The notes: a model not told the origin generated them from the letters alone. A stretch of 64,000 nt of DNA from Candidatus Aveggerthella excrementigallinarum (GCA_018715725.1 DVLD01000012.1:113-64112); one strand, 5' to 3'; positions 49,264-61,408 are shown, counted from the stretch's first letter. Program-made: numbers and translations.

Positions 49264-50067
49264 CTATGCCAACACGTTCACGGCCAGCACGCACGCCAGC
49301 ATGAGCGCCATGACGGCGCACGCCACCGCGTCGCGCGGGGCGTAGCGCAGCGGGCGCAGGCGCGTGCGGCCCGTGCCGCCGTGGTAGCAGCGCGCGTCCA
49401 TGGCGAGCGAGAGCGTCTCGGCATGGCGGAACGCGCTCGTGAACAGCGGCACCATCAGGCTCGAGAGCATGCGCAGCGCGCCGCGGCGAGGGCTTTCCGC
49501 CAGCTTCGCCCCACGGCTCACCTGCGCCTGGTAGATGATGGCGAACTCCTGCGCGAACTGCGGTAGGAAGCGCAGCGCGATGCCCATGATCATGGCGATC
49601 TCGTGCGCCGGGAAACCGAAGCGCGCAAGCGGGCGCATGAGGCTTTCCGTCGCCTCGGAGATGTCGAGCGTGGGCGTGGTCATGGTGACGAGCGTCATGG
49701 CGAACATCATGAGCAGCACGCGCGCGGCCACGAACAGGCACTGGCGCACGCCCGCCTCGCTCACGCGGACGAACCCCCACTCAATGAGCACGGCGCCGCC
49801 CTGCACCACGAACAGGTTCAGCACGGCGGCCACCACCGCGATGAGCGCGAGCGGCCCGATCGAGCGCAGCGCCTTGCCCGCCGGCAACCGCGCGATGAGG
49901 AAGAACGCGAGCGCGAAGACAGCGCACACGGCAAGCGAGACGAAGTCCTGCGCCACGAGCGCGATGATGATGAACGCGCAGCCGAGCACGAGCTTGGCGC
50001 GCGGATCCATGCGATGCAGCGGGCTGTCGCCCGGAAGGTAGCTGCCGAAGGAGAACGCGTTGATCAT
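49264..50067 (-). CDS. ECF transporter T component
   Basis: GSYLPGDSPLHRMDPRAK, IALRFLP, AQVSRG and AMDARCY motifs. Confidence 0.92.
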   Translation of the reverse strand: MINAFSFGSYLPGDSPLHRMDPRAKLVLGCAFIIIALVAQDFVSLAVCAVFALAFFLIARLPAGKALRSIGPLALIAVVAAVLNLFVVQGGAVLIEWGFVRVSEAGVRQCLFVAARVLLMMFAMTLVTMTTPTLDISEATESLMRPLARFGFPAHEIAMIMGIALRFLPQFAQEFAIIYQAQVSRGAKLAESPRRGALRMLSSLMVPLFTSAFRHAETLSLAMDARCYHGGTGRTRLRPLRYAPRDAVACAVMALMLACVLAVNVLA

Positions 50068-51896
50068 GACGTCCTCCCTGCCAGCGCGGCGATGTCGCTC
50101 GCCAGCCGAGCGCGGTCGTACAGTCCGCGTGCGCTCAGGGGCACGCCCGCTTCGCGCAGCTCGTTCGCGAAGCGCTGCGGCGCCGGCACGCCCAGGCCGA
50201 TATCGTGCAGCTCATGCCCGCGGGCGAACACCTCCTCTGGCGTTCCGCTCATGTAGACCGAGCCGCCGTTCAGCACGAGCATCCAGGTGGAAAGGTCCGC
50301 CAGGTCGTCCATGTCGTGGGACACCATGACGATCGTCAGGCCCTGCTCGTGCAGGCCCTTGATGAACGTCAGGAAATCGGCGCGCGCGGCAGGGTCCAGC
50401 CCGGCGACCGGCTCGTCCAGGATGAGCGTGCGCGGGCGCATGGCCAGCACGCCGGCGAACGCGACGCGGCGCTGCTGGCCGCCCGAGAGCGCGAAGGGGC
50501 TCTTCTCGCGCAGCTCGTCGAAGTCCAGGCCGACGAGCTCCAGCGAGGCGCGCACGCGCTCGTCCACCTCTTCGGCGGACAGACCGAGGTTGCGAGGGCC
50601 GAAGGCCACGTCCTCGTACACGGTGGCGGCGAACAGCTGGTGCTCGGGGTACTGGAAGACCAGCCCCACCTGCCCGCGCACGTGCGCGGCGACCCGGCGG
50701 TCGGAGAGGTCCTCGCCGCCGACGAGCACGCGCCCTTCCGTGGGCGCAAGCAGGCCGTTCATGTGCTGGAGCAGCGTCGACTTGCCCGAGCCCGTGTGCC
50801 CTGCGATACCGAGGAAGTCGCCCTCGCGCACCGCGAAGTCGATATCGCGCAGCGCCCAGGCGGCGTCAGGGCTCGCGCCCCAGGCGGGTCCGTCGGAAGG
50901 GTCCGCCGCCTTCGCGCGGCGCGCGCGCTTCTTGAGCTTGCGGCGCTCGGCGTTGTTCAGGTAGGCGAAGCTCACGTGGTCGAACTGGATGAGCGGCGTG
51001 CCGAGCGAATCCGCGGGAGCGTCGTCCAGGTGGCCGTCGTCCGCCAGGCCATCGTTCGCCTCGGCAGCTTCGGACGCGCCGACGTCCACGCGGGCCGCGA
51101 TGTCACGCGCGAGCGCTTTCTCGTCCACCGTGGTGTGCACGGGCACGCCCCGCTTCTGAAGGTCGAGCGCGAGCTCGCACGCGAACGGCACCTCGAGGTT
51201 CAAGCTCGCGAGCTCGTCGGCGCGCGTGAGCACCTCTTCCGGCGTCCCTTCCAGGCAGACGGCCCCGTCCTTCAGCACGATCACGCGGTCGGCGAGCGCC
51301 GCCTCCTCCATGAAGTGCGTGATCATGACGATGGTCATGCCGTGCTCGTGCAGGTCGCGGCATACGCGCAGCAGCCCGTCGCGCCCGCGCGGGTCGAGCA
51401 TGGACGACGCCTCGTCGAGCACGAGGATGCGCGGCTCCATGGCCAAGACACCGGCGATCGCGACACGCTGCTTCTGGCCGCCGGACAGCGCCGCCGTCTC
51501 TTTCCGCTCGAAGCCCACGAACCCCACGTCGCGCAGCGCCTTCGTCACGCGCTCGCGCAGCTCGGGCGTAGGCACGCCCAGGTTCTCCGGCCCGAACGCC
51601 ACGTCGTTTTCCACCAGGCTCGCGACGAGCTGGTCGTCGGGGTTCTGGAACACCATGCCCGCCGTGCTGCGCACCAAGTAGGTGCACGCAGGGTCCGCCG
51701 TGTCATGGCCGTCCACCACCACGCGCCCCTCGTCGGGCGTGAACAGGGCGTTCACGTGCTTCGCCAGCGTGCTCTTGCCGCTGCCGTTACCGCCGAGCAC
51801 GCACAGGAACTCGCCCTGCCGCACCTGCAGGCTCACACCCTGCAGCACGTTGCGCGCTCCGTCGTAGGTGAAGCTGACGTTCTCGAATTCGATCAT
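50064..51896 (-). CDS. ECF ATPase, fused EcfA-EcfA'
   Basis: GGNGSGKS and GHTGSGKS Walker A motifs, LSGGQKQR and LSGGQQRR signatures. Confidence 0.92.
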   Translation of the reverse strand: MIEFENVSFTYDGARNVLQGVSLQVRQGEFLCVLGGNGSGKSTLAKHVNALFTPDEGRVVVDGHDTADPACTYLVRSTAGMVFQNPDDQLVASLVENDVAFGPENLGVPTPELRERVTKALRDVGFVGFERKETAALSGGQKQRVAIAGVLAMEPRILVLDEASSMLDPRGRDGLLRVCRDLHEHGMTIVMITHFMEEAALADRVIVLKDGAVCLEGTPEEVLTRADELASLNLEVPFACELALDLQKRGVPVHTTVDEKALARDIAARVDVGASEAAEANDGLADDGHLDDAPADSLGTPLIQFDHVSFAYLNNAERRKLKKRARRAKAADPSDGPAWGASPDAAWALRDIDFAVREGDFLGIAGHTGSGKSTLLQHMNGLLAPTEGRVLVGGEDLSDRRVAAHVRGQVGLVFQYPEHQLFAATVYEDVAFGPRNLGLSAEEVDERVRASLELVGLDFDELREKSPFALSGGQQRRVAFAGVLAMRPRTLILDEPVAGLDPAARADFLTFIKGLHEQGLTIVMVSHDMDDLADLSTWMLVLNGGSVYMSGTPEEVFARGHELHDIGLGVPAPQRFANELREAGVPLSARGLYDRARLASDIAALAGRTS

Positions 51897-52001
51897 GGCG
51901 TTTCTACGGGTCCTTTCTGCGGGCGCCCACGTGACGGCGCCCTGCCCTTCACGGGAAGCGCCGCGCGATATCGCGCGGCGCACGATGGACATATCCTGCA
52001 G

Positions 52002-52598
52002 CTACTTGCCCTTCACCTGGTCCTTCTCAGGCGTGATCAGATTGGAGACCGCCTTGTAGACGACGATGGTGAGCACGGCGTTCAACGCGCTCTTCGCCAG
52101 GTTGAACGGCACGACGGCGGGCAGCAGCAGCGGGATGATGGCATCCGGCGTGCCGTACCAGAACGCCACGCCAATGGTCAGGTTCGTGACAAGGGCGCCC
52201 AGCGTGGCCACGATGGTGCTCAGCACCAGGCCTCCGATGGCGACGCCGTAGGTGCGGTGCTTGCGGTAGAGCAGCGCGGCCGGCAGCACGAAGAACACCG
52301 TGGCGCAGATGTTCATGAGGGAGCCCACCCATTCGCCCAGGATAAGGCCGTGGATGACGGCGGCGACGGCGCCCACGATGACGCCGGCGCCCGGTCCGAA
52401 GGCGAAGCCGCAGACCATGGCGGGCATGAGCGAGGGGTCGTACGTCAGAAACGTCACGCCCGGGATGAGGGGGATCTGGATGAACGAGAGCAGCGCGGCG
52501 ATGGCGCACATGAGCGCCATGGTGACGAGCTGCTTCGTCGACCATTTGTTGGTGTTCTCGAACTGGTAGTCGGAGATGTTCTTCGTTTGCGCGTTCAC
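52002..52598 (-). CDS. ribU: ECF S component, riboflavin transporter RibU-like
   Basis: TKQLVTMALMCAIA, FLTYDPS and PFNLAK motifs; directly downstream of an FMN riboswitch; GTG start with AAAGGAAGG RBS. Confidence 0.82.
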   Translation of the reverse strand: MNAQTKNISDYQFENTNKWSTKQLVTMALMCAIAALLSFIQIPLIPGVTFLTYDPSLMPAMVCGFAFGPGAGVIVGAVAAVIHGLILGEWVGSLMNICATVFFVLPAALLYRKHRTYGVAIGGLVLSTIVATLGALVTNLTIGVAFWYGTPDAIIPLLLPAVVPFNLAKSALNAVLTIVVYKAVSNLITPEKDQVKGK

Positions 52599-52783
52599 GG
52601 CAAACCCCTTCCTTTCAGCAAGGCTCCTTCGGAAGGACCGGTTTTCCGCCTTGAAAAGAAAACAGGCCCGCATGAATTCCTTTCATACAGGCCTTTGGGT
52701 TTGCGAAACGTTCGAACGGGCACCACCCCGAGCGCGGCGAAGGACAAGCGCCTTGCCGCAGGGCCCGCCCATCACGTCGTGCA

Positions 52784-53097: not shown

Positions 53098-53445
53098 TTA
53101 CGCTTCCGAAACCTCCTTCACCACCACGAGCAGCATCTTGAAACGCTCGGGAGCCTTCACGGCGTGCGGCACGCCGGCGGGCATCACGATGGCGCTGCCC
53201 GCCTCGACGCGGTTCGCTTCGCCATCGATTGTAATCTCGGCAGCCCCTTCCAGCACGTACGCGAGCGCATCGCCCGGGGCCGCGTGGGTGGTAATGCCCT
53301 CCCCCGCATCAAACGAGAACAGCGTCATCTTGCATCCCGGAGTCTGGGAAAGCGTGATGCTGTTGACTTTCCCCTCCTCGAACACCACCAGGTCTGCCAC
53401 GTCGAACGGAATACGGTGCTCGACGTTTTTAATCAGCTCGCTCAT
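53098..53445 (-). CDS. Cupin domain protein
   Basis: TLFSFDAGEGITTHAAPGDA..VLEG and MPAGVPHAVKA motifs; AAAGGAG RBS. Confidence 0.9.
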   Translation of the reverse strand: MSELIKNVEHRIPFDVADLVVFEEGKVNSITLSQTPGCKMTLFSFDAGEGITTHAAPGDALAYVLEGAAEITIDGEANRVEAGSAIVMPAGVPHAVKAPERFKMLLVVVKEVSEA

Positions 53446-53532
53446 AGCTCGCTCCTTTCTCCGCCCGTCGACGGAATGTCAGTTAGATTCTTGTGCACGC
53501 TCAGGAGGTGCGACGCGCCACCGCAAAACGTC

Positions 53533-53859
53533 CTACACGCACACCTGCAGCAGCTTGAACGCGCTACGCCCTTCCACTGCGTGCAGCACATGCGCAGGCA
53601 CCATCAGAACCTCGCCCGCCGCAAGCGCCACGCGTCGATTCGGCAGCACGATGTCGCACGAGCCTTCGATTGCGTAGTACAACATGTCTCCGAAGTACTC
53701 CTCTTCGCTGACGCTCTCGCCGTCGTCGAACGCGAGCACCGTAATGCTTGCGCCAGCTTCGAGCGTGGTGAGTGTCCTACTTGAAACGTGACCGGGATGG
53801 TACGCCGTCAAATCGCTCAGGCGCATCGGCGCCTCGGTAGGAAGATTCCGCAATCCCAT
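53533..53859 (-). CDS. Cupin domain protein (paralog with altered metal motif)
   Basis: VLAFDDGESVSEEEYFGD and VPAHVLHAV motifs; AAAGGA RBS. Confidence 0.85.
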   Translation of the reverse strand: MGLRNLPTEAPMRLSDLTAYHPGHVSSRTLTTLEAGASITVLAFDDGESVSEEEYFGDMLYYAIEGSCDIVLPNRRVALAAGEVLMVPAHVLHAVEGRSAFKLLQVCV

Positions 53860-53934
53860 GCCTGTCCTTTCCTCGCATGCGCGGCAGACGCGCGAAAGAA
53901 TACCGCTACGATACCTTCGCACGCGACGTTCGTT

Positions 53935-53950
53935 TGTTGCCGCGGCAACA
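53935..53950. promoter_or_regulatory. Crp/Fnr-family box candidate TGTTGC-CGCG-GCAACA
   Basis: Perfect 16-bp palindrome upstream of the cupin pair, next to a Crp/Fnr gene. Confidence 0.7.
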
Positions 53951-54015
53951 CAGCTAACCGCTGGAGCATATTGAGAGGTCGCCGCCTGTCGCTGCCACTA
54001 TGCGCCTGCAGCGCG

Positions 54016-54708
54016 CTATTTCAAAAACGAGACGTCGACCACGGTGATGTCCTTGCCATCAAGCCGCACGATGCCCTCGTCGCGCATGCGCCCGAGCTCG
54101 CGCGAGAGAGCGCTGCGATCCACGCACAAATACCGCGCAAGCTCGCTGCGCGAAAACGACGCCCGTTGCTGCCCGCTTCCAGACGTGCAATCGTTCAGAT
54201 ACAGCTTCACGCGGTCACGAAGGCGCTTTTGGGCAAGAATGTGCACCTTCCTGTTGAGGAACACGTTCTTGCGCGAAAGCAACCCTACCAGGTTGCCCAG
54301 CATACACCCCGCGCTGCGCGGGGCACCGAAAGAACCGGCACGCCTAATCCGATCGGCGGAAAGCCACAGGACCGCACTGTCCTCGGACGCGAGCGCCTGG
54401 ACCGGGGACGGCACGCCCGCGCATGCGATGCTCTCGGCGAACACGTCGCCCGGCCTCATGCGGGTCACGTTCGCAAGAGAGCCGGACTCGTCGTAAAAGC
54501 CCACTTCAATGTCGCCCTCAACGACCATGCCTACCCGCGCCTGGGCGTCTCCGATGCGTACGAGCAGGCTTCCCTCTTCGTACGAGCGCACCGTGCCGTC
54601 AAGGTAAGCGAGCAGCTCTTCGTACGACCCCTCGTCAATGCCAGCGAACAGCGCGCTCGTTGCCATTGCCTGAGTGAGCGCGGAATATTTCTTGCCCGCC
54701 GTTGCCAT
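54016..54708 (-). CDS. Crp/Fnr family transcriptional regulator
   Basis: cNMP-like domain (GDVFAE) and C-terminal HTH SRSELARYLCVDRSALSREL. Confidence 0.93.
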   Translation of the reverse strand: MATAGKKYSALTQAMATSALFAGIDEGSYEELLAYLDGTVRSYEEGSLLVRIGDAQARVGMVVEGDIEVGFYDESGSLANVTRMRPGDVFAESIACAGVPSPVQALASEDSAVLWLSADRIRRAGSFGAPRSAGCMLGNLVGLLSRKNVFLNRKVHILAQKRLRDRVKLYLNDCTSGSGQQRASFSRSELARYLCVDRSALSRELGRMRDEGIVRLDGKDITVVDVSFLK

Positions 54709-54715
54709 GGCAACG
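54700..54715. promoter_or_regulatory. Second Crp/Fnr box candidate CGTTGC-CATG-GCAACG over the regulator start codon
   Basis: Perfect 16-bp palindrome sharing GTTGC-N4-GCAAC with 53935-53950; TTGACA at 54733-54738 on the plus strand. Confidence 0.6.
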
Positions 54716-54796
54716 CGCCTCCTTTGTTAGCTTTGACATACTTCATTGTGAGTTATATGAGGCTTACATTTTAAGCACAATCGACAGGAGGTGCCA

Positions 54797-55852
54797 ATGG
54801 CACGAAACATCAACCGCCGGCAATTCTTCGCGCTGGCAGGAACCGCCGGCGCCGCATTCGCCCTAGGCGGAGCGCTCGCCGGCTGCAGCTCGTCGAACGA
54901 CGCCGCTCCAAGCACGAGCGAAAGCGCCAGCTCCGAGACTGCATCCGAGAGCACGGCCTCATCCGGCCCCATTGAGGTCACGCTCGGCGTGCCGACCGCC
55001 CCGCCGACGCTGCCCGTCCTGCGCATGATTGACTCGAAGGCGCTCGGCGAGGACGTGACGATCAACCTGGATGTATGGACGGCGCCCGACCAACTCATCG
55101 CGATGGTGCAGGACACTGAGCACGACATGTTCGCCTTCCCGCTCACCGTGGTCTCCACGCTGTTCAACAAAGGCCTCGACGTGCGCCTCATGAACGTGAA
55201 CACGTGGGGTGTGACGTACTTCCTCACGACCGACCCGAACTTCGGCAGCTGGTCGGATCTGAAAGGCAAAACCGTCCACATCCCGCTGCAGTCCTCCCCT
55301 CCCGACGCGCTAACCCAGTACTTCATCGATGAGGCCGGGCTTGTCCCTGGAGAGGACGTCGAAATCGTCTACGCATCGACTGACGAGGTCACACAGCTGC
55401 TCGCTTCCGGCCAAGCGCAGTACGCCACGCAAATCGAACCACAGGTCACGGCGGCGCTTTCGAAGAACCCAAATCTGCGCCGCGCCCTGAGTTTCGAGGA
55501 AGAGTGGCAGCGCGTGACCGGCACAGACACCATGATTCCCAACGCCGGCTTCGGCACGAAGCAGTCGTTCGTCGACGAGAATCCCGATTTCGTGGCAGCT
55601 TTCCAAGACGCCTACCAGGAAGCGCTCGAATGGGTCGTCGCGAATCCGGCCGAAGCTGCAAAACTCGCCGAGGCGGAGCTCGGCATGCAGGCAGCCCTGG
55701 TCGAACAGGCCATCCCGAACATGGGCTTGCACTTCAAGACGGCGCCCGATGCTGCAGCAGAACTCGCCGATTTCTACGAGCTCCTGCACACCTACGACCC
55801 GTCCATGATCGGCGGGGACCTCCCGACCGAGGAGATGTACTACCAGGCTTAG
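54797..55852 (+). CDS. NitT/TauT (SsuA/NMT1-like) ABC substrate-binding lipoprotein with Tat signal
   Basis: NRRQFF twin-arginine motif, lipobox LAGC, SWSDLKGKTV, IEPQVT; AGGAGG RBS. Confidence 0.9.
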   Translation: MARNINRRQFFALAGTAGAAFALGGALAGCSSSNDAAPSTSESASSETASESTASSGPIEVTLGVPTAPPTLPVLRMIDSKALGEDVTINLDVWTAPDQLIAMVQDTEHDMFAFPLTVVSTLFNKGLDVRLMNVNTWGVTYFLTTDPNFGSWSDLKGKTVHIPLQSSPPDALTQYFIDEAGLVPGEDVEIVYASTDEVTQLLASGQAQYATQIEPQVTAALSKNPNLRRALSFEEEWQRVTGTDTMIPNAGFGTKQSFVDENPDFVAAFQDAYQEALEWVVANPAEAAKLAEAELGMQAALVEQAIPNMGLHFKTAPDAAAELADFYELLHTYDPSMIGGDLPTEEMYYQA

Positions 55853-55884
55853 CGCACCCGTTGGCCATGTCCTCGCAAGCGAAC

Positions 55885-55914
55885 GCGACGCCCCCGTCCC
55901 ACCGGGGGCGTCGC
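55885..55914 (+). other. GC-rich hairpin between the substrate-binding and permease genes
   Basis: GCGACGCCCCCG/CGGGGGCGTCGC stem without a T-run; plausibly stabilises the upstream mRNA. Confidence 0.6.
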
Positions 55915-55928
55915 TCTGAAAGGATGCC

Positions 55929-56693
55929 ATGCCGCCGCTGATTCGATCATTTGCACGAAAGCTACCCGCCCGCCTTGCTGCCGCCGCCATCGTGCTCGGC
56001 GTCTGGTGGGCACTTTCGCTTGCCTTCCCTCCGCTCGTCGTGCCGGACATCCCGACGGTCGCCGTTTCGCTCAGGGACATCCTCACCTCGCCCGATGGAC
56101 AGGAGGCCATCTTCACCACTGTCCAGCGACTCGCGCTCGGGCTTGCGAGCGGCCTGGCGCTCGGCGGTGCCATCGGCCTGCTCGCTGGCTTCAGCACCAG
56201 GTTCCACGATGTGTGCTCCCCCATCATCGGCATCCTGCAGACAGTTCCGCCCGTCTGCTGGGTCGTCATGGCTCTCGTATGGTTCGGGTTCAACGGGCGG
56301 CCGGCCATCTTCATTGTGGCGGTTTCGACCATTCCTTACGTGGTGGTGAACCTGAGCGAGGGCGTGCGCAACGTGGATCCCAAGCTCTTGGAAATGGCAC
56401 ACTGCTACCGGTTTTCGCGCGCGAAGGTCCTCCGCCACATCATTCTTCCGTCAGTGAAGCCTTATTTCCGCTCGGCGCTCAAAATCTCGACCGGCGCCGC
56501 CTGGAAAATCGTCGTAATGGGCGAGGTCCTCACGACCTCCACCGGCATTGGCGGCGAAATCGTCACAGCCCGCCTGAACCTCGCGCCCGAAGCCATTATC
56601 GCCTGGGCGGTCGTCGTGGTGGTCCTGTACTACCTCTGCCAGGCGATGTTCTCCCTGCACCTTCCAAAAACCCTTATGAAAGGACCGCGATGA
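55929..56693 (+). CDS. NitT/TauT ABC permease
   Basis: About 6 TMs, LQTVPPVCW, EAA-like loop GVRNVDPKLLEMA...HIILPS. Confidence 0.92.
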   Translation: MPPLIRSFARKLPARLAAAAIVLGVWWALSLAFPPLVVPDIPTVAVSLRDILTSPDGQEAIFTTVQRLALGLASGLALGGAIGLLAGFSTRFHDVCSPIIGILQTVPPVCWVVMALVWFGFNGRPAIFIVAVSTIPYVVVNLSEGVRNVDPKLLEMAHCYRFSRAKVLRHIILPSVKPYFRSALKISTGAAWKIVVMGEVLTTSTGIGGEIVTARLNLAPEAIIAWAVVVVVLYYLCQAMFSLHLPKTLMKGPR

Positions 56694-59600
56694 TCTCGTT
56701 CGACCACGTCTCGAAAAGCCTCGACGGCCTGCCGGTCGTGGAAGACTTCGGCCTTACCGTCGCCGACGGGGAGGTCGTCGTGCTCATCGGCCCTTCCGGC
56801 TGCGGAAAATCGACGCTGCTGAACATGGCCGCAGGGCTCGCTGAGCCTGACGAAGGCTCCGTCGCCACCGATGGAGGGGCGGTCGGCTATGTGTTCCAAG
56901 AGAACCGCCTGCTGCCGTGGCGATCCGTGCGCGAGAACATCGAGCTGGTGAACCCGCAGGCAAGCGACGCCGACGTCAGCCGCATCATTGCTTCGGTCGG
57001 GCTGCGCGGGTTCGAGGACTATCCGCCCGTCCGTCTGTCAGGCGGCATGGCGAAGCGCTGCGCGCTCGCTCGCGCGTTCAATTTCCCCAGCACGACGCTG
57101 CTCATGGACGAGCCGTTCTCTGGCCTTGATTACAGCCTGCGCATGGAGATGGCGGAGCTCTTGCTGAGCATGTGGCGCGAGCAGCGTCACGCCGTGCTGT
57201 TCGTCACGCACGAGATTGACGAGGCGCTCATGCTCGCCACGCGCATCGTCGTGCTTTCAGATCGGCCTTCGCGCATTGTTCGCACGTTCGCACTGCCAGG
57301 CGCCGAAGGCCGCGATCCCGCCGACGCCGCCCTTGCCACCATCAGGCGGCAGATCGTCTCTCTCGTTTCAGGGAAATGCTCCGCAGCGAGTGCCATCGCT
57401 TGGAAAGACACGCCCGCGCAAGGTTTCGCATGCGAAAGCGCGCGTTTGGCCATCGGCCTTGATTGCGGCGCATTTTCCACGAAGCTCGTCGCACTCGACG
57501 CTGCGGGCAGCACGGCGTTTTCCTGCGAGGTCCGCCACAACGGCTCGCCGCGCACGTCGACTGCCGCAGCGCTGCAAAAGCTTGCCACTGCCCTGCCCGC
57601 CGCGCTCGACGCGCCATGCCAGGCAACCGGCGTCCACAGTGCGAAACTGCTCGGCAACGTGAAAGCGAGCGCCTTGATTGAAGAGATGCCCGCCCTCGTC
57701 ACCGGCATGAGGAAACTCTGCCCGCAGGCACGCTCGCTCGTCGACATCGGCGCCCAGAGCGCCCGCTACGTCACGTCGCTTTCAGAAGGCCTGCCACCAC
57801 AGTTTGCGCGCAACCAACATTGCGCAAGCGGCACGGGATCGTTCTTCGAGGATCAGATGGGCAGGCTTGGGCTTCCTATCGAGCGCATCTCCGAAGTTGA
57901 GGCGTACGCCACGTCGTGCCCGCAGATCTCCGGGCGCTGTGCGGTGTTCGCAAAGTCGGACATCGTTCATCGGCAGCAAGAAGGCGCCACCACTCCTGAC
58001 GTCCTGGCAGGGTTGTGCCGCGCCGTCGCGCGCAATTTCAAGGCAACCGTCGTTCGCAATCTCCCCATCGAAACGCCCGTAGCGCTCGCGGGCGGCACCG
58101 TGCGCAACGAAGGCCTGGTGAAGGCGTTGCGCGCCACGTTTGGCCTCGACGAAGCCGAACTGGTCGTTCCCGATGACGCCCCGCTCGCCCTTGCAATCGG
58201 GGCCGCGGTCGAGGCGCGCGGCGCGATAGGCGCCCCTTCGTGTTCGGAGCTCGTGCAGGTTGTGGCCGCCGCCCGCGTGGACGAACTGCCACGCCTTGCC
58301 GCGCTCGGCCCCTGGGCAGCGCCCGCCCAAAGCGACCCGCACCATCTGCCCGTACCGCACGATGCGCCCTGCTTCGTCGGAGTTGATGTCGGGTCAACGA
58401 GCACCGACCTTGCCGTCTGCGGAACGGACGGCACGCTTCTCGACCACTGGTACGTGCGCACCGGGGGCGACTCCTCCGCTGCAGTGCGCAACGTGTTCAA
58501 CCAGTTCGCGCGCGCTCACCCTCATGCAATCGTGGGCGCGGTTGGCGTGACCGGGTCAGGACGCATCAAGGTGGGTCGAGCCCTGAGCGCCGATGTCGTT
58601 GAAAACGAGATCACCGCCCAAGCGACCGCCGCCATCCGCCTGTTCCCCGATGCCACGAGCGTGCTTGAGATTGGGGGCCAGGACTCGAAGTTCATTCAGC
58701 TGGAAAACGGCGTTCCCGTCGATTTCTGCATGAATAAAATCTGCGCGGCAGGCACGGGATCGTTCGTGGAGGAGCAAGCGGCGCGCCTTGGCCTGCCGAT
58801 TGACGAGGTGGGCGATCGTGCAGTGGGCGCACCCAATCCGGTCTATGTTGGCGAACGGTGCACCGTGTTCATGGAAAGCGCCGTGAACGACGCCTTGTGC
58901 GCCGGTGCGGACGTCGATGATGTCGCCGCCGGCATCTGCCATGCTGTCGTGGCAAATTACCGCGCGAAGGTCGTCGGCGGGCGTCCGGTCGGCCCTCGCC
59001 CCATCCTGCAAGGTGGCGTCGCATACAACCGCGGCGTCGTCGCAGCCTTCCGCGCTGCCTTCGGACAGGAGCTCACGGTGTCGCCCTGCTTCTCCGTCAG
59101 CGGTGCGTATGGCGCTGCCCTGCTCGCGCGTGAGAAAGCTCGCGAGCCTGGGTTTGCGAGCGGATTCTGCGGCATCGACACGGCAACGGGCGCTGTGCGG
59201 CAGCGCGCGGACGCCACCCAGCCTGCACGCGATGAGCCCCGACCGCACGACAATGCGTCCTCCCATGGTCAGGCGACCCTGCCCCATGAGCCAAACCCGC
59301 TGCTCGCTGGCTACGATAGAACGATCGACCCGCGCAAGCGCACAGTCGGCATTCCCTTCGTCCTCATGATTCACAAGTTTTTCCCGATGGCGAACGCGTT
59401 CTTTACCGAACTTGGCTACAACGTCCTGCTCTCGCAGCCGACAAACGAGCGCATTGTCAAGCAGTCGCAAGACCTCGCGCAGACCGAAGCCTGCTACCCC
59501 GTCAAGCTCGTGTACGGGCACATGGCGCAGCTTGCCGAACTCGGGGTTGACTACCTGTTCCTACCCGCAGTCTACTCCATGCGCAACGAGCACTCCGCGG

Positions 59601-61408
59601 CTGCGCACTGCTACGGATGCGTTCATTTACAGACCGCCGGGCGTGCCGTGTTCGAATCGCTCGGGCTCGAGCAGCAAGGAGTGAAGCTGCTCAACCCCAC
59701 CTTCGACCTCGAACGCGGCAAACGAGGCATGGCGGGCGCCATGGTGCGCATGGCAGTGCAGCTCGGACACTCGCGCCCACAAGTCATGCGTGCGCTCGCC
59801 AAGGGAAAAGCAGCGATGGACCGCGCCCAGAAAGCACGGCGGTCAAGCGCCCAGTCAACGCTTGATGCGCTTCTGCCGGGCGAGAAAGCCATCGTGCTTA
59901 TCACGCGACCGTACGGCACGAATGACCCAGTGCTCAATATGGGCATCCCGCACATCCTGCGAGAGCGCGGCTACCGCGTGATCACGCAAAGCGCACTGCC
60001 GCTTGAGAACGTGGACCTTTCACGCGACTATCCGGACATGTGCTGGCCGTTCGGCGAGCACATCATTGCTGCAGCGCGCATCGTCGCCGCAAACCCGCGT
60101 CTGTTCGCCATTTACCTGACCAACCACGGATGCGGCCCCGACAGCATGTTGTCACATCTGGTAAAGCACGAGCTCGGAAACAAACCAAACTTATGCGTCG
60201 AGACTGACGAGCATTTTTCGCCAGTCGGGCTCATCACGCGCATCGAAGCGTTTTTGCGCTGCATCGAGGCATGGAGCCCCGCCGACGCGCAGTCGCGCAC
60301 ACTACCGGCAGTCCCGGTCATAGCCGATCGTCCCGAACGCGCAGAAACCGTTTTGTTGCCCAGGTGCGCGGCGACACCGTACATTGCCCGCTATCTCGAA
60401 ACCACCGGTGTACGCTGCGAGACGCTTCCCGCCGTCGACGAAGAAATCCTTCGCGCCGGCAATGCCGCCGTCGATGCGAAAGAGTACGTCGACTTCATCG
60501 CGTACGCTGGACTGATGGGAATCGCGCGCAAAATCGCGCACGATCGCAGCAGCAACGGCGCAGCAACGGAAGCGGGCTCGGACGCCAGCACGATTCTGCT
60601 CGTTCCTTCGACGGAAGGCGCCGAGGCAGACAGCCAGTACGCGCATGTCCTTGCGCGCATGCTGCCCGCAGACGAACAGCTGCGCCTTTGGGCGCCGAAG
60701 CTGGAAACTCTGTTCGAGCGCGCGCACGACCCCGAGCTTCTATTCCGTGCGATCGTCACATCCGACCTCGTCGGCGCGGCACGCCCGTCCGCGCGTGCCG
60801 CCCTTGAGCGCGACGTGCTCGCTGGCGGCATCCCGCATACATCCGACCTTCCGGACCTTGCGCGCCTCGCGCACGCAACGTGGAGTGACGACGCTCCGCG
60901 CCTCGGCATAGTCGGCGCGCTCTCGTGCGTGCACCTTATCGACGGCGGCATCGGGGAAGAACTCGAGTCGCGCGGGTATCGGCTGCTCCGCATGCCGCTC
61001 TCCGAAAGCCTCTGGTTCCTGTGCGGCGACGCGGCGCCCTCGCCCGATCGACAGCGAATCGCAGAACTATTCGCACGCACACTGCGCGCTATCGACAAAG
61101 CGTGCCAGGGAGACTCCCCGTTCTCTGCGGACCCGGCGTCCCTGACCCGAGATGCGGATGCGCTTTTCCCCCGCTTTGCCGGAGGACTTGGCCGTTATCG
61201 CGCTGCAAAAGCTGTGCAGCTTTCACGCTCATGCGACGCCGTGCTAAGCATGGCCCCTGAATACGAGAACACCGAAGCCGTGCTCTCGCTCGCGCGGCTC
61301 CCACTCTCCGGTCCGCTGTTCCGCTGCGCGGTCGGCGGCATGTGGGAAGCGGACGCGTGGAGCGCGCTCGACTCGTTCCTCCACTACGTAAAACGTCCAA
61401 ACGCGTGA
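56690..61408 (+). CDS. Fusion of an ABC ATPase with an acyl-CoA dehydratase activase-like protein (2x BcrAD/BadFG plus DUF2229-like region), 1572 aa
   Basis: ATG overlaps the permease stop after an AAAGGA RBS; GPSGCGKS, LSGGM, LLMDEPF and VTHE, then GLDCG/DIGAQ/CASGTG/RCAVF and GVDVGSTS/EIGGQDSK/CAAGTG/RCTVF, then CYPVKLVYGH and GCGPDS; no stop between them. Confidence 0.85.
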   Translation: MISFDHVSKSLDGLPVVEDFGLTVADGEVVVLIGPSGCGKSTLLNMAAGLAEPDEGSVATDGGAVGYVFQENRLLPWRSVRENIELVNPQASDADVSRIIASVGLRGFEDYPPVRLSGGMAKRCALARAFNFPSTTLLMDEPFSGLDYSLRMEMAELLLSMWREQRHAVLFVTHEIDEALMLATRIVVLSDRPSRIVRTFALPGAEGRDPADAALATIRRQIVSLVSGKCSAASAIAWKDTPAQGFACESARLAIGLDCGAFSTKLVALDAAGSTAFSCEVRHNGSPRTSTAAALQKLATALPAALDAPCQATGVHSAKLLGNVKASALIEEMPALVTGMRKLCPQARSLVDIGAQSARYVTSLSEGLPPQFARNQHCASGTGSFFEDQMGRLGLPIERISEVEAYATSCPQISGRCAVFAKSDIVHRQQEGATTPDVLAGLCRAVARNFKATVVRNLPIETPVALAGGTVRNEGLVKALRATFGLDEAELVVPDDAPLALAIGAAVEARGAIGAPSCSELVQVVAAARVDELPRLAALGPWAAPAQSDPHHLPVPHDAPCFVGVDVGSTSTDLAVCGTDGTLLDHWYVRTGGDSSAAVRNVFNQFARAHPHAIVGAVGVTGSGRIKVGRALSADVVENEITAQATAAIRLFPDATSVLEIGGQDSKFIQLENGVPVDFCMNKICAAGTGSFVEEQAARLGLPIDEVGDRAVGAPNPVYVGERCTVFMESAVNDALCAGADVDDVAAGICHAVVANYRAKVVGGRPVGPRPILQGGVAYNRGVVAAFRAAFGQELTVSPCFSVSGAYGAALLAREKAREPGFASGFCGIDTATGAVRQRADATQPARDEPRPHDNASSHGQATLPHEPNPLLAGYDRTIDPRKRTVGIPFVLMIHKFFPMANAFFTELGYNVLLSQPTNERIVKQSQDLAQTEACYPVKLVYGHMAQLAELGVDYLFLPAVYSMRNEHSAAAHCYGCVHLQTAGRAVFESLGLEQQGVKLLNPTFDLERGKRGMAGAMVRMAVQLGHSRPQVMRALAKGKAAMDRAQKARRSSAQSTLDALLPGEKAIVLITRPYGTNDPVLNMGIPHILRERGYRVITQSALPLENVDLSRDYPDMCWPFGEHIIAAARIVAANPRLFAIYLTNHGCGPDSMLSHLVKHELGNKPNLCVETDEHFSPVGLITRIEAFLRCIEAWSPADAQSRTLPAVPVIADRPERAETVLLPRCAATPYIARYLETTGVRCETLPAVDEEILRAGNAAVDAKEYVDFIAYAGLMGIARKIAHDRSSNGAATEAGSDASTILLVPSTEGAEADSQYAHVLARMLPADEQLRLWAPKLETLFERAHDPELLFRAIVTSDLVGAARPSARAALERDVLAGGIPHTSDLPDLARLAHATWSDDAPRLGIVGALSCVHLIDGGIGEELESRGYRLLRMPLSESLWFLCGDAAPSPDRQRIAELFARTLRAIDKACQGDSPFSADPASLTRDADALFPRFAGGLGRYRAAKAVQLSRSCDAVLSMAPEYENTEAVLSLARLPLSGPLFRCAVGGMWEADAWSALDSFLHYVKRPNA

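Follow-up and report, generated by a model that had tools for sequence, protein, structure and literature searches.

Why should the gene for the ATPase subunit of a solute importer run without a stop codon into a gene for an iron-sulfur enzyme that is itself driven by ATP? The question is raised by a locus of Candidatus Aveggerthella excrementigallinarum, a chicken-gut member of the Coriobacteriia, within a stretch of 64,000 nucleotides (GCA_018715725.1 DVLD01000012.1:113-64112) that is referred to here as the window and that comes from a metagenome bin labelled G000 (2.03 Mb in 200 contigs, 87% complete, G+C content 66%). On its plus strand, positions 56690-61408 form one uninterrupted open reading frame (ORF) of 1572 codons. 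The reading that we favour, with some reserve, is that this gene joins the ATPase of a NitT/TauT-group ATP-binding cassette (ABC) importer to what is predicted to be an ATP-dependent iron-sulfur reductase or dehydratase, complete and able to activate itself. Among the reductions known from anaerobes the most demanding are those of the ATP-dependent 'archerase' enzymes, for which, to our knowledge, very few substrates have been established. The original prediction for this locus, made from the DNA by itself, knew of no description of such an architecture, and literature searches found no publication that describes it and no case of an archerase tied to a transport ATPase.

The first codon of the fusion gene, an ATG, shares bases with the stop codon of the permease gene before it (ATGA). 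The same frame is open upstream as far as 56006, because of the high G+C content, and homologues begin where the ATG at 56690 lies. Pfam models recognise ABC_tran at residues 18-143 (PF00005; score 93 bits, cut-off 25), a pair of BcrAD_BadFG domains, of which the second spans 563-813, and DUF2229 (885-1101), with a weak match to HGD-D at about 1140-1189, right after DUF2229, and the NCBIfam model TIGR00241 for acyl-CoA dehydratase activases matches twice. The ABC motifs comprise a Walker A (GPSGCGKST), Q70, LSGGM, a Walker B (LLMDEPF) and H174, and the catalytic motifs are invariant in both of the ATPase alignments that were made. Four cysteines lie in the activation domains, in the contexts CASGTG (C378), RCAVF (C417), CAAGTG (C685) and RCTVF (C724), with further cysteines of the C-terminal part found in CYPVK (C935) and GCGPD (C1148). 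The translation, Pfam and NCBIfam thus agree with the originally predicted frame of 1572 codons with its complete ABC ATPase, two BcrAD/BadFG domains and four cysteines, and the DUF2229-like region with its two motifs is there as described.

Residues 1-240 (56690-57409) make up the ABC nucleotide-binding domain with a normal C-terminal tail, its end being placed by alignment with the ATPase of a related locus, L024, in which the gene is not fused (P numbers denote related proteins and L numbers related loci). The ordinary tail of this unfused ATPase aligns up to about residue 240, and the start methionine of the unfused enzymes falls at residue 251-252, so that only about 12 residues (241-252, 57410-57445) are new linker. 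A linker had been predicted and is present, but it is not the stretch of about 25 residues at 57370-57450 that had been proposed.

After the linker come two activation domains of the HgdC/HadI-type ASKHA ATPase kind, at residues 253-510 (57446-58219, with C378 and C417) and 561-820 (58370-59149, with C685 and C724). Both align over their full length with HadI (4eht), HgdC (1hux) and MbdQ of 3-methylbenzoyl-CoA reductase, and the second also with 9gai_D (E 1e-33; 1hux, E 1e-32). The pairs C378/C417 and C685/C724 fall on C127 and C166 of HgdC, the residues that hold the [4Fe-4S] cluster between the two subunits of HgdC. Here the two ATPase domains stand in tandem in one chain, followed by catalytic domains, rather than forming a stand-alone homodimer, and from the alignment they look like an internal dimer.

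The remaining 713 residues were modelled with high confidence (AF2 pLDDT 91.5, pTM 0.92) and consist of two domains, referred to as Red1 and Red2. Red1, at residues 881-1195 (59330-60274), comprises DUF2229 and the HGD-D end and carries C935, C977 and C1148; the model of this half (about 860-1195) matches 3o3m_B (the HadB-type chain of 2-hydroxyisocaproyl-CoA dehydratase), 8s02_B (BzdNO) and 7yzm_A (DCCP) with Z of 15.0-15.4 in VIA-align, over 277-286 aligned residues and at a root-mean-square deviation of 4.2-4.5 Å. Red2, at residues 1211-1572 together with the stop codon (60320-61408), is a second domain of the HAD/BCR/DCCP fold; modelled alone (pLDDT 93.9), it matches chains of DCCP, MbdON, HadB-type enzymes and BzdNO with Z of 10.1-10.2 over 259-268 residues, the next unrelated match having a Z of 7.4. 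The three cysteines C935, C977 and C1148 are invariant in 39 of 39 aligned members of the clade and all lie in Red1, with no conserved cysteine column in Red2 among the same 39 members. The partner of the ABC ATPase had been described as an activase that is normally a stand-alone protein; this part of the prediction does not hold, as the catalytic module in the same chain means that the partner is not a lone activase, and it has instead the complete architecture of the PlsA/Ger type. Without the ABC domain that architecture is very common: an exhaustive profile-free search gave 1492 representative relatives of the C-terminal part at E<=1e-10, and among the best 150 listed some 60 span all 713 residues and are 1250-1370 amino acids long, with relatives of 1400-1430 amino acids aligning to the first half only.

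The activation domains with their cluster cysteines and the folds of Red1 (Z 15) and Red2 (Z 10) are shared with HadBC/HadI, HgdAB/HgdC, BzdNOPQ and MbdONPQ. The window protein differs from these 2-hydroxyacyl-CoA dehydratases and class I benzoyl-CoA reductases in having all parts in one chain and in keeping cysteines, three in number, in the first catalytic domain only. There is no gene for a CoA-ligase or CoA-transferase nearby, so a thioester substrate is not indicated. The matches to DCCP and its reductase DCCP-R (6eno, 7yyl) are equally strong (Z 15.1 and 10.2), and the logic of ATP-dependent reduction is the same; in the clade of the window protein, Red1 carries three invariant cysteines and Red2 lacks any.

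It has to be asked whether the fusion is real. An error of assembly or sequencing, or a recent pseudogene-like read-through, could have merged two genes, and a metagenome bin of 200 contigs at 66% G+C, where long frames come easily and this one is open up to 56006, is where such an error might be expected. This explanation is nonetheless close to refuted, as the same junction is found in independent assemblies and studies. Independent assemblies contain at least 16 distinct variants of full length. Across Logan, ENA and NCBI assemblies, the exact-sequence cluster of the window protein has 12 distinct variants of 1572 amino acids among 15 listed members, and a second cluster has 5 distinct full-length variants of 1566 amino acids. 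The stretch itself is found in gut metagenomes of nine studies, mostly of chicken and other birds. The original prediction had asked for read support at 57350-57470; contigs of four runs from four studies cross this region with no indel and no stop, these being assembled Logan contigs and not raw reads, and the sole difference there is a G>A at 57444 that changes Arg to His in the linker. A joint in run X7 that skips 56820-57097 was treated as cross-mapping, because its shorter side has only 24 letters and it falls on the Walker A stretch, to which contigs from many other organisms map as well.

Nor is the fusion confined to one assembly, as had been feared. A second species of the same genus (g1), G002, deposited as 'uncultured Coriobacteriia bacterium' and 98% complete, has a fused gene at 95% identity, and a further lineage, P0003, has one at 75% identity in an identical context of cupins, Crp regulator, substrate-binding protein (SBP), permease, fusion gene and DUF1292. 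The synonymous divergence (dS) that separates P0003 from the window is about 1.0. The ratio of nonsynonymous to synonymous divergence (dN/dS) lies between 0.09 and 0.21 in every domain, the ATPase domain having 0.10, activation domains 1 and 2 having 0.15 and 0.12, and the two catalytic domains having 0.09 and 0.21; there is purifying selection on either side of the junction. The linker is 25% identical between the two and is of equal length and in the same frame. An out-of-frame ATG at 57430, which had been pointed out as a possible sign of a split gene, opens a frame of 10 codons only and is not kept in the P0003 lineage, and an internal start at the in-frame TTG at 57446 was rejected as well, the codon being CTG in that lineage. 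It is apparent that the fusion is real and that its frame has been kept under purifying selection in both halves since the lineages split.

It is also rare. In a collection of 5.8 billion proteins, from which proteins of 864-2751 residues were considered and the best 8000 word-sharing candidates scored, ABC_tran, BcrAD_BadFG and DUF2229 are combined only in the cluster of the window and in P0003, and in a scan of 185,579 species genomes the sole fused form is on a contig of G002. The fused form is limited to genus g1 and its sister lineage, the other lineages found having separate genes. Further fusions that were suggested by matches starting at query residues 7-43 turned out to be N-terminal extensions of open frame without ABC domains.

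The domain order of the enzyme part is that of PlsA and Ger, which turn the sn-1 acyl esters of glycerolipids into vinyl or alkyl ethers. Both the plasmalogen synthase (PlsA/PlsR) and the glycerol ester reductase (Ger) are built from two activation domains and DUF2229 and HGD-D pieces (PMC13159169; PMC12838417), an architecture termed BBD(H) in which a pair of PF01869 domains is followed by PF09989 and, optionally, PF06050 (PMC13159169). Examples are CPE1194-1195 of C. perfringens, the single-gene PlsA of E. faecalis and Tmari_0479 of T. maritima (PMC12838417, PMC13159169). The window enzyme has the same pieces in one chain, two BcrAD_BadFG domains, DUF2229 and a trace of HGD-D, and is predicted to share the injection of electrons, driven by ATP, into a HAD/BCR-like catalytic module of the same protein. 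It might therefore be thought that the fusion is a true ether-lipid synthase that acts on membrane phospholipids and uses the ABC ATPase merely as a membrane anchor, an idea to which the shared architecture (PMC13159169) lends itself and for which an address at the membrane would be sensible, given that PlsA and Ger act on membrane lipids.

Several observations make this very improbable. The window protein is only about 27-35% identical to the sampled canonical-type proteins and is about 100 residues shorter. A CxxCxxxC...C motif between activation domain 2 and Red1, a working marker of this analysis for which there is no published criterion, is present in all 10 of the canonical-type representatives listed (P0219-P0269) and is absent at that position from the window protein's side (P0001, P0003, P0141, P0143, P0155, P0162, P0166, P0183); in P0208 a motif of this type is found near the C-terminus only, not before Red1. 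In a quick maximum-likelihood tree of Red1 from 85 near-full-length proteins, among which there is no characterised PlsA or Ger, the motif-less proteins lie on one side of a long branch with an SH-aLRT support of 100 and the CxxC-bearing ones, named canonical PlsA/Ger-like and not PlsA, on the other; the two fused lineages are sisters within the motif-less group. The genome, moreover, already has a canonical-type paralogue on contig C61 (2054-5362), an open frame of 1542 amino acids that is about 27% identical and has the CxxCxxxC motif, and this is a probable ether-lipid synthase candidate. The conserved partners of the clade also differ, being a dedicated Crp-family regulator, cupins and ABC solute importers rather than lipid genes, and only here is the enzyme joined to an ABC ATPase in addition. 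The substrate is probably not a membrane lipid, and in surveys of lipid synthesis not every protein with the BBD architecture should be counted as an ether-lipid synthase. Other genes of the family in G000 are a split pair of activase and DUF2229 genes on C58 (1347-4250), a partial BBD gene at the contig end of C198 and a lone activase on C4.

The N-terminal half belongs to an operon for a binding-protein-dependent importer. Upstream of the fusion gene lie an NMT1/SsuA-like substrate-binding lipoprotein (54791-55852, plus strand, with an alternative ATG at 54797; Pfam NMT1, NMT1_2 and Phosphonate-bd) and a permease of the NitT/TauT group (55929-56693, plus strand; BPD_transp_1). Among the ORFs of the window, searched with Pfam, there is no other ATPase gene in this operon, and the fusion ATPase is its only one, as had been predicted. 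The ATPase, permease and SBP match best to NitT/TauT importers such as TauABC, SsuABC, NrtABCD and SaoA/SaoP (bioRxiv 10.1101/2022.07.06.499078), with which they also share the habit of one ATPase gene and one permease gene per operon; no member of the group joined to a redox enzyme was found elsewhere. The ATPase part is nearest to the taurine/nitrate/sulfonate class in NCBIfam and the permease to SaoP and NtrB, both below cut-off. The SBP scores below the cut-off of SsuA_fam, and its best match in the PDB is 3hn0, deposited as 'nitrate transport protein' (E 6e-17). The scores are far below the curated cut-offs (TauB 164 against 357 bits, SaoA 135 against 360, SaoP 117 against 295), so the importer falls outside every named specificity class. 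The SAO organometallic system, the nearest in NCBIfam for permease and ATPase together, was rejected at these scores.

Divergent from the transporter operon is a gene for a Crp/Fnr-family regulator (54016-54708, minus strand; Pfam cNMP_binding and HTH_Crp_2), and beyond it on the same strand lie two small cupin genes. Cupin 1 (53098-53445) encodes 115 amino acids and has homologues 57-64% identical beside the PlsA-like gene in many loci, its homologue in L024 being recognised as Cupin_2; cupin 2 (53533-53859), of about 108 amino acids, is a paralogue of cupin 1.

The same genes accompany the enzyme far outside the fused lineages. Its distribution was followed in the best 80 of 258 relatives from the scan of species genomes (39-47% identity, 0.99 Mb of loci in total), and within the class in 401 Coriobacteriia genomes, 10 of which have the clade at E<=1e-100. 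Carriers include Faecalibacterium prausnitzii, Flavonifractor, Pseudoflavonifractor, Intestinimonas, Angelakisella, Olsenella, Paraeggerthella hongkongensis, many Lachnospiraceae and Oscillospiraceae and one Treponema. Of the 80 related loci, 63 have a Crp homologue and 54 a cupin. NitT-type transporter parts are found in 42, and 19 others have a FecCD/Peripla_BP_2 importer instead; where at least 5 kb is available on either side (31 of the 80) an importer is present in 29, of NitT type in 19 and of FecCD/Peripla_BP_2 type in 10. The cupin pair is kept in L015, L019-21, L024, L037-L053 and others by tblastn, and it appears as one gene for a bicupin of about 220-234 amino acids in L029 and in Faecalibacterium-type loci.

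The order of the genes is variable. Nine split-form Coriobacteriia genomes (seven from the class scan together with G012 and G428) have separate SBP, permease, ATPase and enzyme genes in the same order as the window. In Lacrimispora and Petroclostridium, and in L024, L086 and L094, the genes for SBP, permease, ATPase, two cupins and the enzyme follow in line; other loci have SBP, permease, ATPase, Crp, enzyme and cupin in line; the Flavonifractor group has Crp, SBP, permease, ATPase and two cupins divergent from the enzyme gene; and one Firmicute has the enzyme gene at the front, with ATPase, SBP and permease after it. The loci of FecCD/Peripla_BP_2 (BtuC-like) type, L054, L055, L058, L112 (for instance L112:10013-13678) and 15 more, from Faecalibacterium, many Lachnospiraceae and others, combine the same enzyme clade and regulator with the bicupin of about 220 amino acids. 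Their importer parts are nearest to corrinoid, haem and siderophore systems, and the SBP is nearest to the uncharacterised 4ovk and then to HI_1472. An association that outlasts the shuffling of order and strand, and even a change of importer class, argues for a functional link. Literature searches found no description of this gene set, and the Protein Atlas gave generic 'activase' names only.

A second line of evidence for the association is a palindrome, GTTGC-N4-GCAAC. Of the three exact copies in G000 two flank the regulator gene, one at 53936-53949 upstream of the cupin pair, where it resembles an operator, and the other at 54701-54714 over the start codon of the regulator, facing the SBP operon. 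The palindrome is kept in G002, at the P0003 locus and in two split-form Coriobacteriia, and the 80 related loci, drawn from several phyla, hold 83 copies where about 1 would be expected from base composition. These fall in 55 of the 80 loci, at the edges of the regulator, enzyme and transporter operons, and one such edge is that in front of the FecCD-type operon in Faecalibacterium. The palindrome is a strongly conserved putative operator of an uncharacterised branch of the Crp family, and its sharing places regulator, enzyme, cupins and importer in one regulon. The third copy in G000, at C118:3721 between an undecaprenyl-diphosphatase-like ORF and the next gene, may be there by chance.

The layout of the box is similar to that of HcpR2, a regulator linked to hcp that binds GTAAC-N4-GTTAC (PMC1274295), but the sequence differs. 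A link of the gene set to hcp and nitrosative stress was rejected as a general feature, as hcp is near 2 of the 80 related loci and about 4 of some 95 loci overall; none was found in G000 (87% complete) or in G002 (98% complete). The gene does lie beside the set in two distant members (the P0143 and P0162 loci; L024:1-2569 and L026:3-1272), and the hcp neighbourhood of L024 also holds ferredoxin, DsrE and HD genes.

If the protein works as its homologues do, residues 1-240 would serve as the ATPase subunit of the importer and dimerise under the permease dimer. The two HgdC-like domains would form an internal pseudo-dimer with one [4Fe-4S] cluster held by four cysteines, and hydrolysis of ATP would drive a low-potential electron from this bridging cluster into a cluster held by the three cysteines of Red1. 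Red1 and Red2 would form the catalytic pseudo-heterodimer with the substrate site and, judging from the gene context, the substrate could be the imported solute or a product made from it by the cupins. As ABC ATPases are dimeric under the permease, two reductase modules would sit at the cytoplasmic mouth of the transporter, with uptake and reduction taking place side by side.

How far the covalent link matters is another question. The fusion may be a neutral event of operon evolution, in which a stop codon and a spacer were lost and the two halves work independently, the ATPase powering the importer and the reductase acting as in other organisms, with no channelling or allosteric coupling, even if they share a pathway; this is possible, although we hold it to be clearly less probable than a joining with a function. 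It fits with this that, of the 258 relatives from 185,579 species genomes and the 401 genomes of the class, just one genus and a sister lineage have the fused form, as do the fast evolution of the 12-residue linker (25% identity) and the tolerance of split forms for intervening genes and divergent transcription. Set against this, the fusion has outlasted a divergence of about 1 in dS, over which purifying selection has acted on both halves and the length of the linker has stayed constant, and a linker so short, between two bulky modules that must spare the dimerisation of the ATPase, suggests a tolerated and defined geometry.

Some of the same facts, with others, weigh against the reading of the fusion as importer and reductase combined. 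Nearly all lineages keep ATPase and enzyme separate, in some of the split forms cupin or regulator genes lie between the two, and the Flavonifractor group transcribes the two divergently, which together mean that no covalent link is needed and that the fusion may add little. We know of no substrate common to NitT/TauT and FecCD importers, and the evidence for the junction consists of contigs rather than raw reads. The original proposal that uptake and reductive processing are physically coupled therefore stands in part: the association of the genes is strengthened, with an importer in 29 of 31 loci and a shared operator, and a physical link is not required, as most lineages have split genes. 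The main value of the fusion lies in tying this enzyme clade to ABC importers, a Rosetta-stone link to a set of regulator, reductase, cupins and importer in abundant gut commensals. If transporter and enzyme do act as one machine, it would be a new way of coupling uptake to chemistry.

A bolder form of the idea is that the importer hands its cargo directly to the ATP-driven, low-potential iron-sulfur reductase, with cupins as helpers and under a dedicated Crp-family sensor, the cargo being a metal chelate, a tetrapyrrole (haem or corrinoid) or an oxyanion that is hard to reduce. This is unlikely on present evidence, although if true it would offer a route of processing independent of oxygen to strict anaerobes of the gut, Faecalibacterium prausnitzii and Flavonifractor among them. 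The hints towards it are all weak, namely the FecCD/BtuC-like importer in about a quarter of the loci, a surface protein with a possible likeness to Shp/NEAT and the use of haem for sensing by some regulators of the Crp family, CooA and HcpR for example. The surface protein was nearest to Shp/NEAT haem-binding proteins in a language-model feature search, with a score of 0.90 and a low recognition value, and neither relaxed-threshold Pfam nor single-sequence or profile searches of the PDB gave a match. Several of the carriers are in culture, which opens the SBP's ligand, the regulator's signal and the enzyme's reaction to direct tests.

The SBP, permease, ATPase and cupin 1 of the window are 54-72% identical to Clostridia-type clusters of the Flavonifractor/Oscillibacter kind, several of them from chicken-gut bacteria, with the SBP alone at 63-72% to those of Oscillospiraceae-type clusters, and the same genes are only 25-35% identical to clusters in other genera of their own family. 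The G+C content at third codon positions is 0.75-0.80 across the cluster (53098-61408) against 0.91-0.93 in the neighbouring housekeeping genes. As similarity and composition suggest, Clostridia-type bacteria of the gut were probably the source from which this Coriobacteriia lineage obtained the cluster by horizontal transfer, and the fusion arose from neighbouring genes of a conserved, Crp-regulated set. An in-line cluster may have been acquired first, after which the cupin pair would have moved beside the regulator and no longer parted the ATPase and enzyme genes, so that the stop codon and spacer between these two could be lost, once, before the fused lineages split.

Some minor features of the related loci may be added. 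At L029:5243-5947, the P0155 locus, a bicupin gene of 234 amino acids stands between the ATPase and enzyme genes and is a second fusion event within the gene set. A Crp gene stands between the ATPase and enzyme genes on the same strand at about 7447-8169 of L022 (G148:C8), from one Coriobacteriia genus, and likewise in L082, L084, L100, L104, L105 and L108. The surface protein mentioned above is membrane-anchored and 500-1340 amino acids long, and is encoded directly upstream of the SBP in 17 loci of type B (such as L108:101-1888, L013:1105-5127 and L019:55-3063); it is made of repeated modules of about 150 amino acids, with the consensus start PGTYTVTANL, that belong to no Pfam family. Within the window itself an energy-coupling factor (ECF) module lies at 49264-52673 on the minus strand, with a CbiQ-type T component, a duplicated ATPase of 642 amino acids and an S component, and it appears to be unrelated to the fusion.

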